Source: Thermoplasmata archaeon
GTDB lineage: Archaea; Thermoplasmatota; Thermoplasmata; Lutacidiplasmatales; UBA184
DNA: 52,222 bases
Direction of reading: 5' to 3'
NCBI GenBank assembly: GCA_028864975.1
Contig: JAGWLG010000025.1
Location: 1 to 52,222, forward strand
Shown piece after piece: positions 16,495 through 28,212 of the stretch. Position numbers and translations under genes: made by a program. The first letter of the stretch is position 1, and the number at the start of each line of letters is the position of its first letter. The notes below the pieces were generated by a model. That model was given only the letters and a program-made list of their open reading frames with translations. It had not been told where the DNA came from and ran no database searches.

Positions 16495-19440
16495 TCAACC
16501 CCCGACGCCGCCCTCGGGCGGGGGCTCCATCGAGGTCCCTGGCGGCGGGCCTGCCATGGGTGCCATGGGGGGCGCGCCCTTCTTCTTCCGCATCATCATG
16601 ACCAGCGCGAGCACGACGACCACCGCCACGACGGCCCCGATGATGGCATAGAGCAGCGTACCGCTCAACGCGTTGCCGTTCCCGTTGTTGTTCGGAGCCG
16701 GAAGGACCACGGTGATGGAGGTGGTGGCGGGGGACGCAGGAGGGGCGTACCCTTGGGCGGTCGCCGTGGCGGAGAAGGTGTAGGTGGTGGCCGCCGTGAG
16801 GCTCGACGGGGCCGTCACGGTCCACGTGGCGACCCCGGAGCTCGAGGTGGTGCACGGCGTTCCACCCGGGCTGCCACAGCTCGTGGCGATCGCAGGTGAG
16901 GAGGTGATTGTGACGGTTGCGCCACTGACCGGGCCCGTCGGGCCGGAGACGGTGACGGTGAAGGTCACGGTCGCTCCCTCACTGACCGAGCTCGGGCTCG
17001 AGGCCGAAACGGTGATCGGGGAGAGGGTCAGCGGGGACTCCTGTACCGTCAAGGTGAAGCTGGGTCCGACGGTGCTGAGGTTGTATCCCGTCCCGAAGAG
17101 GCCCACCGCTGCGACGGAGATGGTCGCGGTCGTCTGTCGGGGCGTCGCCGAGATGGTGATGGGCACCGTATAGTACCCTGTCGAAACGGTCGAGTTCGCT
17201 CCGGTCGTGCCTTCGCCCGCCGGGCTCACGCTGACGGCCGGCCACGCGTTCGCCACACCCACATTGGAGATGTTCGTCCATACCCCGACGCTCACCGTGG
17301 CCCCGGCCTTGACCGAGGCGCCGTTCGCCATGCCCACCAGCCGAGCCGCTACGCTCAGGGGTGGCGTGATGAGGACCTTCACGGAAACGGTCCCGGTCGA
17401 GTGACCGGTGCCGGACGCGGTGATGGTCAGGTTGTCCCAGGTGTCCGCGGTCAGCGTCGCGTTGGCCCAGTATGTTCCCGAATAGGTGTCGGACCCGGGG
17501 CCATAGGATCGGAGCGAGGTCGAGTATCCACCGTAGGTGACGCTTTCCTTCGGGTCGGAAAGGGTGACCACGGCTCCGAGGAAGGGAGCACCACCGGAGA
17601 GCACCGTCGCGGTGATGTTGGTCAGGCCATGTCCTGAGGCGAGGGTGGAGGGGGTCGCGATCGCCGTGACCAGCGTCCCGAGCCATACCGCGGTGGGGCT
17701 CCCCGCGGTCGTGTTGCTGAGAGGCACCGCCTGCTGCCCAGTGAGGTTCTCCACGAGGACCACTCCGGCCGGGATCGCCCAGGGCTGCTGCGTGCTCCCC
17801 ACGAGCACGTCGTTCGAGTTCTTGATGTCCCAGCTCCACGCGTATCCCGCGTACGGGGTCGTCCAGCTCCCGGCGCTCGAGAGCATCTGGATGCCGGTCT
17901 TCACCGAGTACTTCGACATGTTGCCGAAGTAGGTGATCATCGGTTGGGTGGAGTTCACGTAGGGGAAGGCGAACCCCGCGATCCCGACACGTCCTCCGGG
18001 CTGAGCGTAGAACGGAGTGTTGGTCTCCCCCCAGGCCGTGGACTCGTTGAGCAGGAGGGTGCCGTTCCCCGTGCATCCGGTGGTGGAGAAACAGACGGTC
18101 CATATCCCGCTAGAATTGTCCACGGTCGTCTCCCACCACCATCCGTGGACGTTCTGCATGGTGATCGTGTGGGATCCCGGCGAAAGCGGAGAGGTCTCCA
18201 CTCCGAACGAAGCGTTGCCGGTCCACTTGTTCACAACCGCGTAGAATGGGAAGAATCCCTGGTAGTTGCCGATCCCCGTGAAGGAGATGTTGATGTCGGC
18301 GAAACCCAGGTAGATCTCGGAGGACGAATTGAGGGGAAGGATCGATTCGTGCGTGGCCACCTTTCCATTGGGCGGGATGACCGACGGGATATTGTGGATC
18401 GTCAGCTGGACGCCGGAGACATTGCTCAGGGTCGAGTCAACGGTCTCGCTCCCCAGGTAGGTGTGGAAGCTGACCGGGGGAGGTGGAGCGACCCCCCAAA
18501 GGAAGGTCTTGTCCGTGGTGGTGGAAGGCAGCGGAGCGGGATAGTTGACCAACACCGTGTCGTTCCCCACGGCCCACGGGCAGCTGGGCACCCCGAAACA
18601 CTGGGTGAAACCTGCCATCGGGACCGCGTAGCTGGCGGTCGACGGCGTTCGGTACTCACCGTTCGCGGGTTGGTATCCCGCGGTGGTCGTATTGAATTGC
18701 ATCGCGGGGTCGAAGATCCCTTGGAAGGCGGAGCTCGGGAACGGAAGGGAAGCCCCCGATTCGTTGACGTAGAGTGTCGGGGCGATGCCCGCGAACGAGT
18801 TGGTCCCGACTGCCGAGGTGTAGTTCAGAAGATACGTGCCGTTCTGCCAGGCAGGTACGCCCGACCCGATGGGCTGACCACCAATGGTCGAGAACGTCCA
18901 CCAGTACCCATGGAGGTGGGTCATCCGGAAGACCCAGGTGCCAGGGTTGGGGAGCGAGATGGCGGTGTCGACGACGTCGTGCGTGATGCTCCGGTTCGAG
19001 AAGACCGCCCTCGGCCACACCACCGTGGTCGAGCTGGTGGGATCGTAGTGGACCCAGAACCCGATCGCCGCCACCTCGGCGTCTCGAGCGGCGATGTTGA
19101 ACCCGATGAGCTCGTTTAGCGTGACGTTCACGTTCTCGCCGGCGCTCAGAGAGATCGCGGTCGAGAAGCGCGCGGAGAAGTTCATGGCGGTATTGCCCCC
19201 GACGTTGGAGTCGGTCGTGGTGATGGCGGTGTTCCCGTAGATCGCGGGGACGAGCGAGGTTCCGGGCGTGGCCACTTGGAGCGTTCCCGGGGTGAGCAGG
19301 TGAGGGGCGGCATGCGGCGGCACGGCGAGTGCCTGCGCGCCCCCCACGGGCGACCCGGGGACGGCGACGAGCGCGACGAGCAGGAGCAGCGCCGCGGTTC
19401 GGTAATGTTGTTTCAGCCAGCCGGCGACGCGCGGAAGCAT
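16495..19440 (-). CDS. Large secreted, C-terminally anchored surface protein with two tandem ~255-aa beta-rich domains and Ig-like stalk domains
   Basis: Signal peptide (AALLLLVALVAVPG..AQA), many N-x-S/T sequons, Thr/Ser-rich Ig-like repeats, TM segment LLYAIIGAVVAVVVVLALVMMM followed by RKKK. Confidence 0.85.
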   Translation of the reverse strand: MLPRVAGWLKQHYRTAALLLLVALVAVPGSPVGGAQALAVPPHAAPHLLTPGTLQVATPGTSLVPAIYGNTAITTTDSNVGGNTAMNFSARFSTAISLSAGENVNVTLNELIGFNIAARDAEVAAIGFWVHYDPTSSTTVVWPRAVFSNRSITHDVVDTAISLPNPGTWVFRMTHLHGYWWTFSTIGGQPIGSGVPAWQNGTYLLNYTSAVGTNSFAGIAPTLYVNESGASLPFPSSAFQGIFDPAMQFNTTTAGYQPANGEYRTPSTASYAVPMAGFTQCFGVPSCPWAVGNDTVLVNYPAPLPSTTTDKTFLWGVAPPPPVSFHTYLGSETVDSTLSNVSGVQLTIHNIPSVIPPNGKVATHESILPLNSSSEIYLGFADINISFTGIGNYQGFFPFYAVVNKWTGNASFGVETSPLSPGSHTITMQNVHGWWWETTVDNSSGIWTVCFSTTGCTGNGTLLLNESTAWGETNTPFYAQPGGRVGIAGFAFPYVNSTQPMITYFGNMSKYSVKTGIQMLSSAGSWTTPYAGYAWSWDIKNSNDVLVGSTQQPWAIPAGVVLVENLTGQQAVPLSNTTAGSPTAVWLGTLVTAIATPSTLASGHGLTNITATVLSGGAPFLGAVVTLSDPKESVTYGGYSTSLRSYGPGSDTYSGTYWANATLTADTWDNLTITASGTGHSTGTVSVKVLITPPLSVAARLVGMANGASVKAGATVSVGVWTNISNVGVANAWPAVSVSPAGEGTTGANSTVSTGYYTVPITISATPRQTTATISVAAVGLFGTGYNLSTVGPSFTLTVQESPLTLSPITVSASSPSSVSEGATVTFTVTVSGPTGPVSGATVTITSSPAIATSCGSPGGTPCTTSSSGVATWTVTAPSSLTAATTYTFSATATAQGYAPPASPATTSITVVLPAPNNNGNGNALSGTLLYAIIGAVVAVVVVLALVMMMRKKKGAPPMAPMAGPPPGTSMEPPPEGGVGG

Positions 19441-19464
19441 GGCCCGCGCACACCTGTGGCTGGG

Positions 19465-19471
19465 TAATAAA
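19465..19471 (-). promoter_or_regulatory. Putative TATA box for the 981-aa surface protein gene
   Basis: TTTATTA on the minus strand, 24 nt upstream of ATG 19440, consistent with a leaderless archaeal transcript. Confidence 0.5.
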
Positions 19472-19547
19472 GGGGTGTCCCGGAGGTTCTGTCCCGATAG
19501 GAACTTCGAGGAGAAGACCGGGCGCCGGGCGTTCGGTCGACCCGAAC

Positions 19548-19553
19548 TTATAT
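19548..19553 (+). promoter_or_regulatory. Putative TATA box for the SH3-amidase-PKD gene
   Basis: TTATAT in a GC-rich context, about 40-55 nt upstream of the candidate ATGs (19596/19608/19614). Confidence 0.5.
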
Positions 19554-19607
19554 GACCGAAAGAGGGGGAGTTCTCTCTCGCGAACCTTCCCTAGAATGTG
19601 GGAGTCC

Positions 19608-21860
19608 ATGTCCATGAACCGCCACGGCCCGGTCGTCGGCGTGCTCGCTCTCGCGGTCGTCCTGCTGTTTCTGGTCCAGACACCTTCGTTCGGTCCGGCG
19701 GCACCGGCCCATGCTTCGCTCCCTCGCTCGGCCCTGGCTCCTTCAGCCACGAGCGCCGGGCTCACCCCTACGGGCTCCGCGTTCGGACTCGGGGTTGGCG
19801 ACCAGGTCGATGTCGCCTCGGCCAGCGTGAACTGCCGCCAGGCTCCCAACACCGCCGCGCAGATCTACTCCGTCGAGCCCCAGTTCGAGCAGGGCGTGAT
19901 CGTCGCGGGGAGCGTGCTCGCGGACGGGTACGTCTGGTGGGAGGTCTCATGGGACAACAACTTCGCAGGCTGGTCCGCGGAAGGGAACAACGGAACGGCA
20001 TGGCTGGCGAACCTCACCGGGAAGACGGTCGCGTACGACCGAGCCGCGGCCGGGGCCTACGCTTCGACCTACTGGTGGACCGTCGCGAGCGATGGCTACT
20101 TCTGGGACAGCAGCGGAAGCTACGTCTCCTACCCTCAAGGCACCAGCGTGCTGGGAAAGTCTGGGGACGACTGCGCGCACTACTCGAGCCAGGTCATCGG
20201 GAACGAGCCCCATCAGGCGGGAGGAGGGCTCAACATTCCCTCGCGTGTGCCCCCGACCTACGGCGAGCCGGGCGCAGGGCGTCTGGGGGACATCCTGCTG
20301 AGCAATGGCTGGGCCGTTCAGGTGAACGGGGTCCAGAGCATGGAGATGGGGGACCTCATCAACTACGAGTGGACGAGCTCCTCCACCACCTGGGACCACA
20401 TCGCGGTCTACCTCGGGAACGGAACCGTCACCGCGCACACGAACTCCCATTTCGGGACGAACTGGACCCTCGGGGGCTTCTACGCGGCCCGCTACGTCCA
20501 CATCCTGGGCACGAGCTCCGGGGGCAGCGGCATCGACCACCCATCGGTCGGGCTGACGCTCTCCCCGTCGTCGGGCCCAGCCCCTCTCGCGGTGACCGCG
20601 TCTGTGACAGCGACCGGCGGCTCGACGGTCTATGCCTCCTACAAGTTCCTCTGGGGTGACGGGACGTCGACCACGTCCTCTTCCCCCTCCGCCTCCCACA
20701 CCTACACCGCGGTCGGCACGTACTCCGCTGATGTCGAGGTCACGGATTCCCTAGGCGCGACCGGCTGGTCCGCGAACCAGACCGCCACCGCGCAGGGCGG
20801 CGGCCCTCCCCCGCTCTCGGTCGGCCTCTCCGCGAACTTCACCCATGGGAATGCGCCCCTCGCGGTCGCCTTCACGGCCACACCCCAGGGGGGGAGCGGA
20901 GCCTACGCGTCCTTCGCCTGGACCTTCGGGGACGGGTCGACCACGTCGACCACCACCTCGACAGCCTCCCACACTTACGGCGGGGCGGGAAGCTTCTCCG
21001 CCACGGTCAAGGTCGTCGACTCCTCGGGGGCCCCGGCCACCTCCTCTGCCGTCGTCATCCTTGTGAACTCGACGGCACCTCCCCCGCTCTCGGTCTCGCT
21101 CACAGCGGCGACAACGAGCGGACCGTTCCCGCTCGCGGTCCCCTTCACCGCCAACCCTTCCGGCGGATCGGGGGTGTACTCGACCTTCTCCTGGTCCTTC
21201 GGCGACGGGAACACCCAGACAACGAGCGCGAGCACGGTCACGCACACCTACACCAGCTCGGGCACCTTCTCCGCCACGGTGACCGTCGACGATGGTGTGA
21301 CCCACGCGACGAGCACTGCGGTTCAGGTCGCGGTGTCGTCGCCCTCGGGACCTCCCACGCCGATCTCCCTCTCCCTCGGGGCCAGCGCGACCTCCGGAGC
21401 AGTCCCGTTCTCCGCCACCCTCTCCCTCTCCATTTCGGGGGGACGATCGCCCTACCGCGTGGCGTGGGACTACGGAGACGGGACCTCCACGGGTCTCTCC
21501 CCGATCGCTGGCGCTTCGACGAGCGCGACCCACACCTACACCACCTCGGGAACGCTGGTCGTGACCGCGACCGTTGCAGATGCCCTAGGAACCACCGTGC
21601 ACACCTCGCTTGACCTTACCCTCCGTTCTCCAGGTGGGTCCTCCTCGCCCCCGTCCTCCACGCCCACCGGGGCCGCGCCAACCCCTCTCGGTGTTCTGCT
21701 CTCCGCTCCTACCGTCTACCTCCTCGTCGCGGCCCTCGGGGGTGCGCTCCTCGCCCTGGGGGTCTATGGCTACCGAAGGAAGGCCCGACGGGACCTGAGG
21801 CCCGCGACGGGTGACGAAGGGGCCGACCGGGGGGCGTGGGCCCCTCCACCTTCGGAATGA
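19608..21860 (+). CDS. Membrane-anchored SH3b-like + Amidase_6-like (NlpC/P60 clan) + 4 PKD domain protein; putative peptidoglycan hydrolase
   Basis: Signal peptide; GDQVDV..VNCRQAP..DGYVWWEVSW..GWSAE (SH3b-like); YDRAAAGAYA..DDCAHYSSQ..GDLINY..DHIAV..AHT (Amidase_6-like); four W(T/S/D)FGDG-type..HTY repeats; C-terminal TM plus RRKARR. Confidence 0.8.
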   Translation: MSMNRHGPVVGVLALAVVLLFLVQTPSFGPAAPAHASLPRSALAPSATSAGLTPTGSAFGLGVGDQVDVASASVNCRQAPNTAAQIYSVEPQFEQGVIVAGSVLADGYVWWEVSWDNNFAGWSAEGNNGTAWLANLTGKTVAYDRAAAGAYASTYWWTVASDGYFWDSSGSYVSYPQGTSVLGKSGDDCAHYSSQVIGNEPHQAGGGLNIPSRVPPTYGEPGAGRLGDILLSNGWAVQVNGVQSMEMGDLINYEWTSSSTTWDHIAVYLGNGTVTAHTNSHFGTNWTLGGFYAARYVHILGTSSGGSGIDHPSVGLTLSPSSGPAPLAVTASVTATGGSTVYASYKFLWGDGTSTTSSSPSASHTYTAVGTYSADVEVTDSLGATGWSANQTATAQGGGPPPLSVGLSANFTHGNAPLAVAFTATPQGGSGAYASFAWTFGDGSTTSTTTSTASHTYGGAGSFSATVKVVDSSGAPATSSAVVILVNSTAPPPLSVSLTAATTSGPFPLAVPFTANPSGGSGVYSTFSWSFGDGNTQTTSASTVTHTYTSSGTFSATVTVDDGVTHATSTAVQVAVSSPSGPPTPISLSLGASATSGAVPFSATLSLSISGGRSPYRVAWDYGDGTSTGLSPIAGASTSATHTYTTSGTLVVTATVADALGTTVHTSLDLTLRSPGGSSSPPSSTPTGAAPTPLGVLLSAPTVYLLVAALGGALLALGVYGYRRKARRDLRPATGDEGADRGAWAPPPSE

Positions 21861-23896: not shown

Positions 23897-26395
23897 TCAC
23901 GCGGGGTCTGACCCCAGCGACTGGTGGAGCTCTCTCCATCGACGCTGAAGGTCGGAACGCCGGACCCCCAGGTGCTGGGCCTCTTCGAGCGTCGCGCGGG
24001 CCGCAGTCCGCTCTCCTCTTGCGATCTCACCCTCGGCGCGGGCGAGGAGGACCTCGAAGAGGTAGCGGGGCAGGGCGTGGACCCTCGCAAGTTCCTCCGC
24101 ATGGGCAAGGTGGGAACGCGCCTTCTCGTGGTCTCCTCGGTGGTGGGCATGCCTCCCCGCGAGGATCGCCTGGGGGAGCTCGAAGCGGGGCCCCTCGACC
24201 GGAGGGACCAGCTGCCGTGCGCTTTCCATCGCGCTCTCCGACCGGTCCAGCGCCCCCTCGTTGAGCGCGTGATGGCTCTCTCGAAGCAGGGCCTCGGCGT
24301 GGACCAACCGAGCTCCGTGCTCTTCCCCCCAGGTCGAGACGTTCTGCAGCCTGCGGAACCCCTCTTCGGTCCGCTTCCGGAGGAAGTCGAGCTCCGCCAG
24401 CGGGATCCCCAACCGGACCTTCCGAAGCTCGTCCCCGCCGTCCTCGAAGACCCGCAGGGCACGGGCGTAGAGCGCGCGGGCCCGGTCGGTCTCTTCGTGC
24501 TCTTCGAGGTAGTAGTCTCCCAGCCGGCGGCAGGCGTCGCCAAGGAGGACGAGGTCCGGCTGCCCCTCGGCGAACCGCAGGGCCCCGTCCGCTCGCGCCA
24601 AGGCCTCGTCCAAGTCGCCCAGAGCGAGCGCGGCCTCGGCCAGGAGCCCTGAGGCCTCGATCTGCGTGATGGAGGGTCGCGTCTCGTGCGGCGCCGGCAG
24701 GAGCCCCTGGACCCGACGGCGGGCCTCGGTGTACTTCCCCTGATGGAGGTGGGTGCGCGCGAGCGCCAGCTGGACCGCTTCGTGAGGCTCGGCCGGCAGG
24801 AACATCGTGAACGCGTCCATCAACCGCTCCTCCGAACGGCGTAGCTCCCCGGCTTCCGCGAGCACCTCCCCCAGGCGCAATAGGACCTCGCGCTCCTGTT
24901 CGCGATGCTCCTTCTCCGTGGGAGGAAGCCTCTGCACCGATTCGAGCGCCCGCTCCAGCGCCTCGCGCGCCTCCGACACCCGCCCGGCGTGTCGCGCGAC
25001 ATGGAAGAGGCGGGTGTTGTACTCGAACGATCGCAGGTCGTGCCGTCCCAGATGGAAATGGACCGAGAGGTCGCGGACCCATGCCTCCTCTCCCCGAGGG
25101 CCTGGACCCAGGACCTCCATCACCTCGGCCAATCGTCGATGCATCCGGCGCCGCCGCGTCTCGGTCAGCATCGACAGGAGACGCTGCCGCTCCTCCTCCT
25201 CTCGGAACCGATAGCGCTCGTCCGGGAGCTCCTCGAGCACACCCGAGCGGACGAGCCGCTCGAGCGACCGGGCGACCTCCTCCTCATCACCCTCGGCGAC
25301 CTTGGCCAGGGCCGCAAAGGGGAACTCGTCGCCGAGCAGCGCGCCATACGCGAGGAGCTTCTCGGCGAGCTCGCTGACCTTTCCCCGGTTCCTCGACGAC
25401 CTCGAAGGTTCCTCTCGGACGCGGTCGGCACGAGGGCCCTCGGTAGGGGACGCACTCTCTCCACTTCCTCCCCCGCGGACCGCGCGGCCCCGCTCGCCCC
25501 GCGCGAGCCGTTCCAGGAAGAGCGGGTTCCCCTCGCTTTCGGCAAAGAGGCGTGTCACCGTGTCAGGGTCCGGTGGTTGGTCGGCGTTGAGCCAGCGGAG
25601 GTAGTCGCGGACCTCGTCCATGTTGAACGGGCGCACCGAATGGACCTCCAGGCCCCCTTCCCTCCCCAACGACTCGAGGACCTCTCGGGAGGGAGCCGCC
25701 AGTTCCTCGAGAGGGAGGGAGGTGAGCATTACTCCCAGGGGCAGGCCAGGGGCATGGCGGATCAGGAACTTCGCGAACTCGAGCGTCGTGCTGTCCGCGA
25801 AGTGGACATCCTCCAGGACGAGGAGGAGCGGTTGACGATGGGCGACGTTCGCGAGGGTCTGGAAGAGTCGGTCGAAGAGGGCCAAGCGGTCCTCCTCCAC
25901 CCCGGCTCCGGCACGGTCGAGGGACGCCCAAACACGGTCGGGGCCCTCCTCCGAGGAGCTCGGTTCCGTCGCGGGCCCTTCGGGCCCTCTCCAGGCCATG
26001 AGCCCCAGCGGAAGCAAGCTGGTGGGGGCATGACGTTCCGGGGTCCAGATCGAACGGAGCGCCCCGTCCGGGCCTTCGCTCCCTCGGAGCTGTCCCGGGG
26101 TAAGGCCACGGAGGGCCTCCTTGATCGTCTCGAACGGCTGGGGGATCTCGCGCGGCTGCGCCCGTCCCTCGAGCACCACGAACCCCCCTCGGCGGGCCTC
26201 CTCGGAGAGCGTGCCTGCGACGGCGCTTTTGCCGATGCCGGTCTCTCCCACCAAGAGCACCGCCGCGCCCTTCCCATCGCGCGCGCGCTCGAGCCAGACG
26301 AAGAGCGCGTCCAGGAGCTCGCCCCTCCCGACGAAGGGGTGGGCCGCCGTTGTGGCGGAGGGGGGACGCGCGAGGGCCACGGACGGCCAAGGCAT
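23897..26395 (-). CDS. STAND-like AAA ATPase (AAA_16 type) with winged-helix and TPR repeats, no effector domain
   Basis: FVGRGEL, Walker A GETGIGKS (26225-26248), Walker B LLLVLEDVH, SEGNPLFL (GxP), then helical TPR-like repeats to the C-terminus. Confidence 0.85.
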   Translation of the reverse strand: MPWPSVALARPPSATTAAHPFVGRGELLDALFVWLERARDGKGAAVLLVGETGIGKSAVAGTLSEEARRGGFVVLEGRAQPREIPQPFETIKEALRGLTPGQLRGSEGPDGALRSIWTPERHAPTSLLPLGLMAWRGPEGPATEPSSSEEGPDRVWASLDRAGAGVEEDRLALFDRLFQTLANVAHRQPLLLVLEDVHFADSTTLEFAKFLIRHAPGLPLGVMLTSLPLEELAAPSREVLESLGREGGLEVHSVRPFNMDEVRDYLRWLNADQPPDPDTVTRLFAESEGNPLFLERLARGERGRAVRGGGSGESASPTEGPRADRVREEPSRSSRNRGKVSELAEKLLAYGALLGDEFPFAALAKVAEGDEEEVARSLERLVRSGVLEELPDERYRFREEEERQRLLSMLTETRRRRMHRRLAEVMEVLGPGPRGEEAWVRDLSVHFHLGRHDLRSFEYNTRLFHVARHAGRVSEAREALERALESVQRLPPTEKEHREQEREVLLRLGEVLAEAGELRRSEERLMDAFTMFLPAEPHEAVQLALARTHLHQGKYTEARRRVQGLLPAPHETRPSITQIEASGLLAEAALALGDLDEALARADGALRFAEGQPDLVLLGDACRRLGDYYLEEHEETDRARALYARALRVFEDGGDELRKVRLGIPLAELDFLRKRTEEGFRRLQNVSTWGEEHGARLVHAEALLRESHHALNEGALDRSESAMESARQLVPPVEGPRFELPQAILAGRHAHHRGDHEKARSHLAHAEELARVHALPRYLFEVLLARAEGEIARGERTAARATLEEAQHLGVRRSDLQRRWRELHQSLGSDPA

Positions 26396-26455
26396 GCGTC
26401 GGTATATCTTGCGGACCGTCGAGCGGGTCGACGGGTCCCGCGCACCGGCCCGCCG

Positions 26456-28090
26456 TCAGGGGGTCGGACGCGGGGGGCTCTCCGCGCCAGGGCCCTCCGG
26501 GGTCGAAGGGACCTCCGGCGGTCCGCGAGCTTCCCCCCCGGTCGGTAGGCCTAGCTTCTCCCTTAGCTCACGGTGCTGGGGAATGAGCGCCGTCGCATAG
26601 GCGTCCACGTCCATCCCTTCCGCCCGTTCAAGTTCGGTGCGCGCCCGCTCCGGGTCGCCCCAGAGCTGGTAGAGGAGGGCGAGGCGAAGGTGCATCTCGG
26701 AGATCTGCGGGGGATAGCCCATCTCCTCCGCCATTCGAAGGGAGCGTTGGAAGGAGGCCTCCGCCTCACCGTACCTTCCGCGGCGGATGGCCAGAAGGCC
26801 ATCGTTCATCGCGATCTGCTGCAGGGCGATGGGGTCCTGCAAACGCTCGAGGATCCGACGGGCCTCGCGGTTGTCGCGCTCGGCCTCGTCCAGCTGACCC
26901 AGGGTCAATCGGAACTCGACGGCGTTGAAGAGGGTCCATCCGGCCATCCGCCGATCGTGGGCACGCTCGGCGAACTGGTGCCCTCGCTCGAGCCACTTCA
27001 CGCCCTCGGCGGGGTCCGTGGGTCCCACCGCCACCGCGAGGTTGTTGCAGGCCCGAGAGGCTTCGTGCCAGTCCCCTGCCCGCTCCACCATCTGGAGGGC
27101 CCGTCGGTAGTATTCCACGGCCTTGAGGACATCGCCCTCTTTCCCCGCATTCGAGTAGGCGTTCCCGAGGTCGACGTAGCAGCGGGCGATCTCTTTTGCG
27201 TCCGCGGTGGGGTCGAGCAGTTCCAACGACCGTTGCCCTTCGTCGATGGCCAAGTGATTGTTCCCCTCGAGCGATGCGATACGTCCCATCAGGCGGTGGA
27301 CGCGAGCAAGTCCCCGGCGGTGCCCTTCCTTCTCGAGGAGCTGCAGGGCGTCAGCGCAGAGCTCCCGGCCGCGATCCCCCTGGGCTTGGTTGCGGGCCAC
27401 TTCGGCCCGGGCGAGGAGGATGAGCGCCCGGAGCACGGACTTCTGAGGAGGGACCAGCTCGAGCGCCTCCACGTACAGTCGGTCGGCCTTCAAGTCGTCG
27501 TTCATGAGGCCGTAGAGCTCGCCGAGCTCGAGCAGCAGGCCGGCTTCCTCCTCGCGGTGGTCTCCTTGGAGCTCCCTCAGGTCGGCCCGGGCGCGCTCCA
27601 GGTGGTGGGCGGAGATCTCGGGGGCCAGGGCCTCCCGGGCCAGGCCCGCGGAACGGCGGTTGTACCGATAGGAACGGTCGTGGACACGGCCCAGGAAGTA
27701 GTGCCGACCCAGCTCTGGCAGGACCTCCGCGGGGGGGTCCGGATACAGCTGTTCGTACGCCTCGCCGATCTTCCGGTGGATCACACGGACCCGGCTCTCC
27801 GTCATCTCGCGGTAGAGTCGCATCCGAACGTCCTCCTGGACGAAGCTGAAGCGCTCGCCCCCCGGTCGCTCCCGAAGGAGTCCCTGGTGGACCAGCCGCT
27901 CGAGCAGCTCGGCCAGAGGCTCTTCGGAAAGTCCCGTCGCGGTACGCAGGAGCGCGAAATCGAACTCCTTCCCGATGGCGCTGGCGTAGGCCAGCACCCT
28001 CTTCTCTTCGTCCGAGAGCCGCTCCAGAGGAAGGTTCGCCCGCTCCCAGGTGGGGGTTCTCGGAGCCGGGGCCGACACAGGAAGAACCAT
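26456..28090 (-). CDS. Winged-helix + TPR protein, ATPase-less paralog of the adjacent STAND protein
   Basis: VLAYASAIGKEFDF..LERLVHQGLL..IHRKIGEAYE aligns by eye with LLAYGALLGDEFPF..LERLVRSGVL..MHRRLAEVME of the neighbour. TPR motifs include CYVDLGNAY and ACNNLAVA. ATG 28090 is preceded by GGGGAAGAGG. Confidence 0.85.
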   Translation of the reverse strand: MVLPVSAPAPRTPTWERANLPLERLSDEEKRVLAYASAIGKEFDFALLRTATGLSEEPLAELLERLVHQGLLRERPGGERFSFVQEDVRMRLYREMTESRVRVIHRKIGEAYEQLYPDPPAEVLPELGRHYFLGRVHDRSYRYNRRSAGLAREALAPEISAHHLERARADLRELQGDHREEEAGLLLELGELYGLMNDDLKADRLYVEALELVPPQKSVLRALILLARAEVARNQAQGDRGRELCADALQLLEKEGHRRGLARVHRLMGRIASLEGNNHLAIDEGQRSLELLDPTADAKEIARCYVDLGNAYSNAGKEGDVLKAVEYYRRALQMVERAGDWHEASRACNNLAVAVGPTDPAEGVKWLERGHQFAERAHDRRMAGWTLFNAVEFRLTLGQLDEAERDNREARRILERLQDPIALQQIAMNDGLLAIRRGRYGEAEASFQRSLRMAEEMGYPPQISEMHLRLALLYQLWGDPERARTELERAEGMDVDAYATALIPQHRELREKLGLPTGGEARGPPEVPSTPEGPGAESPPRPTP

Positions 28091-28212
28091 CCTCTTCCCC
28101 CTCAAGAAACCTCCTCGGCGGAGCTTCGCGGGCTCGTGGCCAGGCCCGCCAGCGAGGATCGCGGCGCCTCCCCCAAGCTTAAGAAGAGCCACGGGAGTCG
28201 CCCTCGCCCCCC

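Follow-up and report, generated by a model that had tools for sequence, protein, structure and literature searches.

Archaeal action on bacterial cell walls has come to light only recently, and the evidence for it rests on a few secreted enzymes. Modular peptidoglycan hydrolases are encoded in about 5% of archaeal genomes, and such enzymes kill bacteria; Amidase_6 is on the list of their catalytic domains, and the combination SH3_3+Amidase_6+Glyco_hydro_25 occurs in Aciduliprofundum boonei and its relatives (Strock et al., PLoS Biol 2025; PMC12352652), the GH25 part of the Aciduliprofundum family having been shown to kill bacteria (PMC4241558). The NlpC_A1 protein of Trichomonas vaginalis, a DL-endopeptidase found at the cell surface, joins SH3b to NlpC/P60 and has a Cys-His-His triad (PMC6299479), and a published classification groups Amidase_6 with Tae3 (PMC10318531). 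Here we analyze a gene in a 52,222-nucleotide stretch of DNA (contig JAGWLG010000025.1 of assembly GCA_028864975.1; hereafter the window, meaning the whole stretch) from a Thermoplasmata archaeon. It encodes a 750-residue predicted surface protein (P0001) that we consider, with moderate confidence, to be a surface-tethered peptidoglycan peptide hydrolase of a wall-less archaeon.

The protein is laid out as a predicted type I membrane protein, with a signal peptide, an ectodomain, a C-terminal helix and a basic tail; in order, its parts are the signal peptide, an SH3b-fold module, Amidase_6, four PKD domains, a Ser/Pro linker, the membrane helix and the tail. This order was proposed in an earlier note made from the DNA alone, and it is confirmed by Pfam for Amidase_6 and PKD, by fold and homology for SH3b, and by hydropathy. 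Like the archaeal enzymes of Strock et al., the protein belongs to a wall-less archaeal host, is predicted to be exported, joins an SH3b-type module to Amidase_6 and is one of several such products of its genome; the patchy spread is also alike, with Amidase_6 detected in 12 of the 301 genomes of Thermoplasmatota sampled here (an underestimate) and the enzymes of Strock et al. in about 5% of archaeal genomes. Unlike the Aciduliprofundales proteins, it has no glycosidase, and its SH3b module has diverged beyond recognition by Pfam. Further differences are the four PKD domains and the C-terminal anchor in the membrane, neither of which is mentioned in the main text of Strock et al. (PMC12352652). 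Archaeal peptidoglycan hydrolases, including SH3_3+Amidase_6 proteins of Thermoplasmatota, are already published (PMC12352652), so the earlier note overrated the novelty of the protein, which is a tethered variant of that theme.

The T. vaginalis enzymes NlpC_A1 and NlpC_A2 (6bim, 6biq) are likewise non-bacterial and place SH3b ahead of a papain-like NlpC/P60-clan domain with Cys-His-His residues; they have been found at the cell surface, where the protein described here is predicted to be from its sequence. They differ in having a canonical NlpC/P60 domain and two SH3b modules, in having neither a PKD stalk nor a membrane helix, and in being proven DL-endopeptidases, and they share 15-16% identity with our structural model. 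Tae3 (4hz9) superposes on the catalytic domain over 113/118 residues (Z 11.2, root-mean-square deviation (rmsd) 2.8 Å, 22% identity), but it is a bare domain that bacteria inject through a type VI system, with a partner immunity protein, whereas the archaeal protein carries a signal peptide and an anchor of its own and is predicted to be exported by Sec and tethered. Neither secretion machinery nor an immunity gene was found nearby, the neighbors being a surface protein and an aminotransferase gene; an immunity gene would not be needed because the host is wall-less. The Bacillus subtilis autolysins LytE, LytF and CwlS (LysM plus NlpC/P60) share the layout of two paralogs in the same genome, and LytE matches the catalytic fold (Z 10.9), but these autolysins act on the producer's own wall, and the host here has no wall.

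Catalytic domain, SH3b module and membrane anchor

The catalytic domain scores 31.1 bits against Pfam Amidase_6 (PF12671; gathering cut-off 23.2) and a sub-threshold 16.8 bits against NLPC_P60 (PF00877; cut-off 23). On these matches the protein is classified as a relative within the NlpC/P60 clan, outside the NLPC_P60 Pfam family proper. A 19-sequence profile searched against solved structures gave only weak NlpC/P60 matches (best E 0.0096) and no Amidase_6 structure by sequence. An AlphaFold2 model of the SH3b and catalytic domains was built from 84 sequences (mean predicted local distance difference test score (pLDDT) 82; mostly 86-97 in the Amidase_6 domain). Model residues 100-263 superpose on NlpC/P60 and CHAP wall hydrolases (VIA; Z 10-11.5, rmsd 2.5-2.9 Å over 107-125 residues), namely the endolysin Lys2972, YkfC, Tae3, Acd24020, LytE and CwlO, with structures including 8tw1, 3h41, 4hz9 and 7cfl. 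Every VIA match to the catalytic domain with a Z of 9 or above is a wall hydrolase, and a transglutaminase appears only at Z 7. With the two-domain model as query, the top matches in Foldseek are SH3b+NlpC/P60 enzymes, T. vaginalis NlpC2/NlpC1 and AvPCP.

Cys189, His264 and His277 lie at canonical papain-like positions in the model. Cys189, His191 and His277 do not vary among 84 aligned homologs, and His264 is kept in at least 90% of them. In alignments His264 coincides with the NlpC/P60 catalytic His and His277, the likely third triad residue, with the third residue (the 'IHA' His) of the solved NlpC/P60 autolysin Acd24020 (7cfl). The earlier note had proposed a papain-like Cys-His(-His) site and had named a structure prediction without such a dyad as grounds for refutation; the modeled positions and the residue conservation both agree with the proposal, and the codon positions given for the Cys, the His and the downstream AHT are exact (Table 1). 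It is very improbable that the Amidase_6 domain is catalytically dead and that the protein is solely an adhesin binding bacterial partners. Non-catalytic NlpC/P60 domains do exist, RipD (4jxb) being among the Foldseek matches, and a tethered, stalked layout is adhesin-like, but the active-site residues are conserved as described, and orthologs retain 70-72% identity in the catalytic domain.

The loop that joins the Cys helix to the helix after it (residues 196-225, GGGL..PSRVPPTYGEPGA) is nearly invariant among subfamily members from archaea and bacteria and is modeled at high confidence. It adds length to the Cys-His spacing, which is 75 residues here and 55 in T. vaginalis NlpC_A1, and is likely to be a substrate-groove element specific to this subfamily of Amidase_6.

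The SH3b module is not recognized by Pfam. The hidden Markov model scan suggested in the earlier note detected Amidase_6 and PKD, but no SH3 family, including SH3_3 (PF08239), matched the protein even at E ≤ 1, and SH3_3 was not matched anywhere in the genome in a Pfam six-frame search. An exhaustive phmmer search with residues 40-340 as query retrieved 1112 proteins at E ≤ 1e-3; the first ~90 residues of the query match many of them as 3-8 tandem stretches, and the repeats matched by the module are SH3_3 according to Pfam in P0043, P0044 and P0068. In a pairwise comparison with an archaeal GH25+Amidase_6+SH3_3 protein, encoded in a complete genome of 1.49 Mb that belongs to the same class (L104), the module aligned to the SH3_3 region with 29% identity over 56 aa and E 1e-4; the Amidase_6 domain of that protein is of another subfamily, and BLASTP gave no alignment to its catalytic domain. 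The AlphaFold2 model has a beta-barrel at residues 25-98 that resembles the SH3b domains of the phiSM101 endolysin (4krt; Z 9.9, rmsd 1.7 Å over 66 residues) and lysostaphin (Z 8.1), and 9ovi (Z 8.1). By predicted fold and by homology to SH3_3 repeats we assign the module to SH3b, as the earlier note had read it, despite its failing the Pfam model.

Because the module is too divergent for Pfam, a screen that requires a recognized wall-binding domain would skip this protein. Strock et al. (2025) required one listed catalytic and one listed wall-binding Pfam domain, and Pfam finds no binding domain here; two LysM+Amidase_6 paralogs in the same genome would be retrieved. Screens by domain list undercount wall hydrolases when the binding module has diverged.

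The protein begins with a hydrophobic stretch (hydropathy 2.32 over residues 3-32), and the predicted signal peptide combines a basic n-region with the hydrophobic core PVVGVLALAVVLLFLV; cleavage, placed by eye, would probably follow AHA36, between AHA and S. The stalk is detected by both PKD_4 (PF18911; E 1.1e-39) and PKD (PF00801; E 2.6e-33), in four stretches each, and its repeats carry WxFGDG and HTY motifs. A second hydrophobic segment, residues 692-722, is followed by RRKARR, which by the positive-inside rule would lie on the cytoplasmic side. Archaeosortase-type sorting signals are shorter than the 28-residue tail that follows the helix, and an NCBIfam scan of the protein found no PGF-CTERM or other C-terminal sorting-signal model and added nothing specific. 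The ectodomain is rich in Ser and Thr (28% together), has seven N-glycosylation sequons and has an isoelectric point of 4.7. Orthologs P0002-P0005 and P0008 have the same N-terminal layout and the C-terminal helix, and the tethered architecture described in the earlier note is thus kept among them.

Host genome, relatives and origin

The genome is a 3.6-Mb metagenome-assembled genome (MAG) in 124 contigs, 89.6% complete, with a full archaeal 16S gene. A search of it found no SEDS protein and only one Mur-ligase-like match, as did searches of archaeal controls for the latter, in keeping with the earlier description of an archaeal host that lacks peptidoglycan synthesis genes. A 124-contig MAG and domain families typical of bacteria might suggest that bacterial DNA was mis-binned or mis-assembled into an archaeal genome, but we give this next to no credence: GC content is uniform across the window (64-71%), and the gene order aspartase, Kelch, TrmB, TYW2, surface protein, the gene studied here, aminotransferase, UbiE-type methyltransferase and STAND ATPase recurs in independent Thermoplasmata assemblies, on contigs of up to 151 kb. 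The locus is not chimeric, since synteny is kept in several independent Thermoplasmata MAGs; contamination or chimeric assembly, which the earlier note had listed as a way for its reading to fail, was rejected.

Orthologs are encoded in all four genomes of the genus (71-74% identity) and in three of four genomes of a second genus, and none was found in 91 genomes of the family's largest genus. Within the genus, identity between orthologs is 77.5% for SH3b, 70-72% for the catalytic domain and 50% for the PKD stalk, and housekeeping neighbors range from 62 to 91%. The difference between the 77.5% and 72% of the two N-terminal domains and the 50% of the stalk argues that the SH3b and catalytic head is under constraint and that the PKD domains serve as a spacer. 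The tallies of Amidase_6 by family, including the 12 of 301 genomes above, are underestimates because the Pfam six-frame genome search drops split matches, among them the Amidase_6 domain of this very gene.

Two further Amidase_6 proteins, of 1093 and 1089 residues, are encoded in the same genome at L092:1800-5081 (+, contig C115) and L093:4361-7630 (-, contig C64). Both have LysM upstream and a C-terminal Amidase_6/NLPC_P60 domain, and they are the only LysM proteins in the genome. About 450 residues between the LysM and Amidase_6 domains are without family assignment, and a 1037-aa PKD protein (L093:1188-4301) is encoded directly downstream of the C64 paralog.

In a sister family of the same order the orthologs combine a GH73 glucosaminidase with SH3-Amidase_6-SH3_3 and are 51-52% identical across SH3b+Amidase_6, a layout predictive of a bifunctional wall hydrolase. 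The proteins (L016-L018; P0006, NCBI MGC8913316.1) are 633 aa long, with a signal peptide and no C-terminal anchor, and are named glucosaminidase domain-containing protein, Thermoplasmata, by NCBI. Other Thermoplasmata relatives combine GH25 with Amidase_6. Amidase_6 is matched by 92 of the 101 catalytic-domain homologs scanned. With one genome scanned per species, relatives of the subfamily were found in the archaeal Thermoplasmata, Bathyarchaeota, ANME-1 and Micrarchaeota and in the bacterial Verrucomicrobiota, Planctomycetota, Acidobacteriota, Bipolaricaulota and Thermotogota.

To place the protein we used a quick IQ-TREE run on 84 catalytic domains, with no outgroup. The window protein falls in a clade of five Thermoplasmata sequences (support 98) that has no bacterial sister in this tree, and the backbone is unresolved. 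Holding 17 main-group archaeal sequences together, a group chosen after the tree was seen, raised the likelihood above that of the quick unconstrained search, and archaeal monophyly was not rejected (approximately unbiased test, p-AU 0.70). The LysM paralog on C64 (L002) clusters with the window clade, and the one on C115 (L001) and its relatives belong to a third, deep archaeal clade. The earlier note had the enzyme acquired from bacteria and proposed this phylogeny as a means of finding the donor; no bacterial donor emerged, and acquisition from bacteria is not supported in the form in which it was put there. A bacterial origin is possible, but neither a donor nor a direction of transfer can be named, given the unresolved backbone, the missing bacterial sister, the archaeal monophyly that is not rejected and the unrooted tree.

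Two observations on other members of the subfamily were made in passing. Bacterial proteins with a signal peptide and N_BRCA1_IG+Amidase_6 form a large uncharacterized family that clusters by phylum in Verrucomicrobiota, Planctomycetota and Acidobacteriota (many of L028-L062; for example L040:2524-3723 and L052:2422-3729), and a Pirellulales member (L051) ends in PEP-CTERM. The catalytic domains from a 'Micrarchaeota' bin (L022:452-922) and an ANME-1 bin (Methanophagaceae, L025:3001-3471) are almost identical, with end branches of 0 and 0.007; Guaymas appears in the record of the former (B47_Guay15), and the near-identity suggests mis-binning or very recent transfer.

Candidate substrates and mode of action

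Peptidoglycan is a plausible target, and we favor it because the genome encodes LysM paralogs, because sister archaea fuse GH73 or GH25 to the same domains and because the SH3b and catalytic domains are constrained; the fold matches point the same way. We know of no Amidase_6 member with a measured activity, and for this reason the target is inferred. Which bond is cut, how the protein sits in the membrane in vivo and what ecological role it has are likewise inferred. The wall target proposed in the earlier note has therefore gained the LysM paralogs and the glycosidase fusions in its favor without passing beyond that status.

A possible, although decidedly less probable, alternative is a surface cysteine peptidase or amidase whose substrate is not peptidoglycan and whose SH3b is a general ligand-binding module; candidates for such a substrate are detrital proteins or peptides, gamma-glutamyl polymers and the cell's own surface glycoproteins. 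Several points weigh for this alternative and against a wall target, beginning with the want of a characterized Amidase_6 enzyme. SH3b folds are not always peptidoglycan binders. Most relatives have no wall-specific module: GH25 or GH73 occurs in only 3 of 101 scanned homologs, and the accessory modules of most of the 101 are Ig-like, PKD, beta-propeller, NosD, dockerin or peptidase C11/C13, so that some relatives are fusions to peptidases. The bacterial relatives, from Verrucomicrobiota, Planctomycetota and Acidobacteriota, are N_BRCA1_IG+Amidase_6 proteins in which the Ig-like N_BRCA1_IG is the only accessory domain and wall-binding modules are missing. The Amidase_6 proteins YhbB and YjcM of B. 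subtilis are listed as uncharacterized (PMC10653849), and Amidase_6 is linked to Tae3 by fold and classification only (PMC10318531). Nor is a salvage route evident, since a search of the 89.6% complete genome found no gene for MurQ, AnmK or alanine racemase. A lone S66 gene (C119:70384-70743, +; Peptidase_S66, LD-carboxypeptidase/MccF, 102 bits) encodes a product that could trim wall tetrapeptides, but Peptidase_S66 is also present in Haloferax and so is not diagnostic of wall salvage. The window itself is rich in genes of amino-acid catabolism (aspartase, glutamate dehydrogenase, aminotransferase). Set against the alternative are the structural matches to the catalytic domain, all wall hydrolases at Z 9 or more with a transglutaminase only at Z 7; the nearest non-orthologous archaeal relatives, which join the SH3b-Amidase_6 cassette to GH73 or GH25; and the in-genome paralogs with LysM.

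As a peptidoglycan hydrolase, the protein would be exported by Sec, its signal peptide would be cleaved, and the C-terminal helix would retain it in the membrane. The four PKD domains and the Ser/Pro linker would form a stalk of ~15-20 nm, as estimated from the domain count, carrying the SH3b module and the Amidase_6 cysteine hydrolase at its tip. Bacterial peptidoglycan is the most likely ligand of the SH3b module, and Cys189-His264-His277 would most likely hydrolyze an amide linkage of the stem peptide or of the cross-link; fold relatives are gamma-D-Glu-meso-diaminopimelate (mDAP) endopeptidases, N-acetylmuramic acid (MurNAc)-L-Ala amidases or cross-link endopeptidases. Because the enzyme would stay on the cell, its action would be limited to exposed wall within reach, and its targets would be touching Gram-positive neighbors or debris from walls. 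Killing and feeding seem about equally probable as the benefit to the archaeon.

A conserved form anchored in the membrane would mean that the enzyme acts at contact range, by touch killing or by surface harvest of wall peptides, and the place to look for such activity would then be co-aggregates and not culture supernatants. A more far-reaching proposal, which we think rather unlikely, is that the genus practices contact-dependent bacteriolysis, with one SH3b-aimed and two LysM-aimed surface hydrolases opening Gram-positive cells that touch it and the contents being taken up; if so, such attack would amount to an archaeal counterpart of surface-mediated bacterial predation, with neither an injection machine nor a released toxin. 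The predicted active part is ~270 residues, small enough for direct biochemistry, and it represents a large uncharacterized Amidase_6 subfamily common to archaea, Verrucomicrobiota, Planctomycetota and Acidobacteriota.

Feature coordinates and neighboring genes

Table 1. Positions in the window of the gene, its predicted parts and adjacent features
Feature	Residues	Position	Strand	Basis or remark
Whole gene, 750-aa surface protein (P0001)	1-750	19608..21860	+	Open reading frame and translation
TTATAT, possible archaeal TATA box		19548..19553	+	Read from sequence
Predicted signal peptide	1-36	19608..19715	+	Hydropathy; cleavage site read by eye
SH3b-fold targeting module	59-138	19782..20021	+	Fold and homology to SH3_3
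Amidase_6 catalytic domain (NlpC/P60-CHAP clan)	139-303	20022..20516	+	Pfam and model
Predicted catalytic Cys189 (TGC, DDCAHYSSQ)	189	20172..20174	+	Opens model helix 150-158
Loop between Cys helix and next helix	196-225	20193..20282		Near-invariance in archaeal and bacterial homologs
Predicted catalytic His264 (CAC, WDHIAVYLG)	264	20397..20399	+	Opens model strand 225-231
His277 (CAC, AHT), likely third triad residue	277	20436..20438	+	Follows next model strand
Four tandem PKD domains, predicted stalk	about 311-399, 400-489, 490-582, 583-674	20538..21629	+	Pfam
Ser/Pro/Thr-rich linker	675-693	21630..21686	+	Read from translation
C-terminal transmembrane helix	about 694-722	21687..21773	+	Hydropathy 2.02
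Predicted cytoplasmic tail, 28 residues, starts RRKARR	723-750	21774..21857	+	
Divergent 981-aa surface protein gene		16495..19440	-	C-terminal anchor; 167-bp gap
STAND ATPase-TPR gene, then ATPase-less TPR paralog		23897..28192	-	

The open frame runs from 19329 to 21860 on the + strand. ATG 19608 gives the signal-like N-terminus, and alternative in-frame ATGs at 19596 and 19614, all within 12 nt, are equally possible starts; the mature protein is unaffected by which ATG is used. The TTATAT element precedes the three candidate ATGs by 43-61 nt and falls within the 167-bp divergent intergenic region that the gene has in common with the surface-protein gene upstream.

That divergent neighbor adjoins the ortholog in the Thermoplasmata MAGs L012, L013 and L100-L103 as well (53-55% identity), and its product could be a co-regulated partner. 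No Pfam family was matched by the 981-aa protein; the ESM Atlas gave weak jelly-roll-type leads to Alginate_lyase2, Peptidase_A4 and YrpD (0.84-0.85). Farther downstream, the STAND ATPase-TPR gene and its ATPase-less TPR paralog form a pair that occupies the same position in L100-L102.

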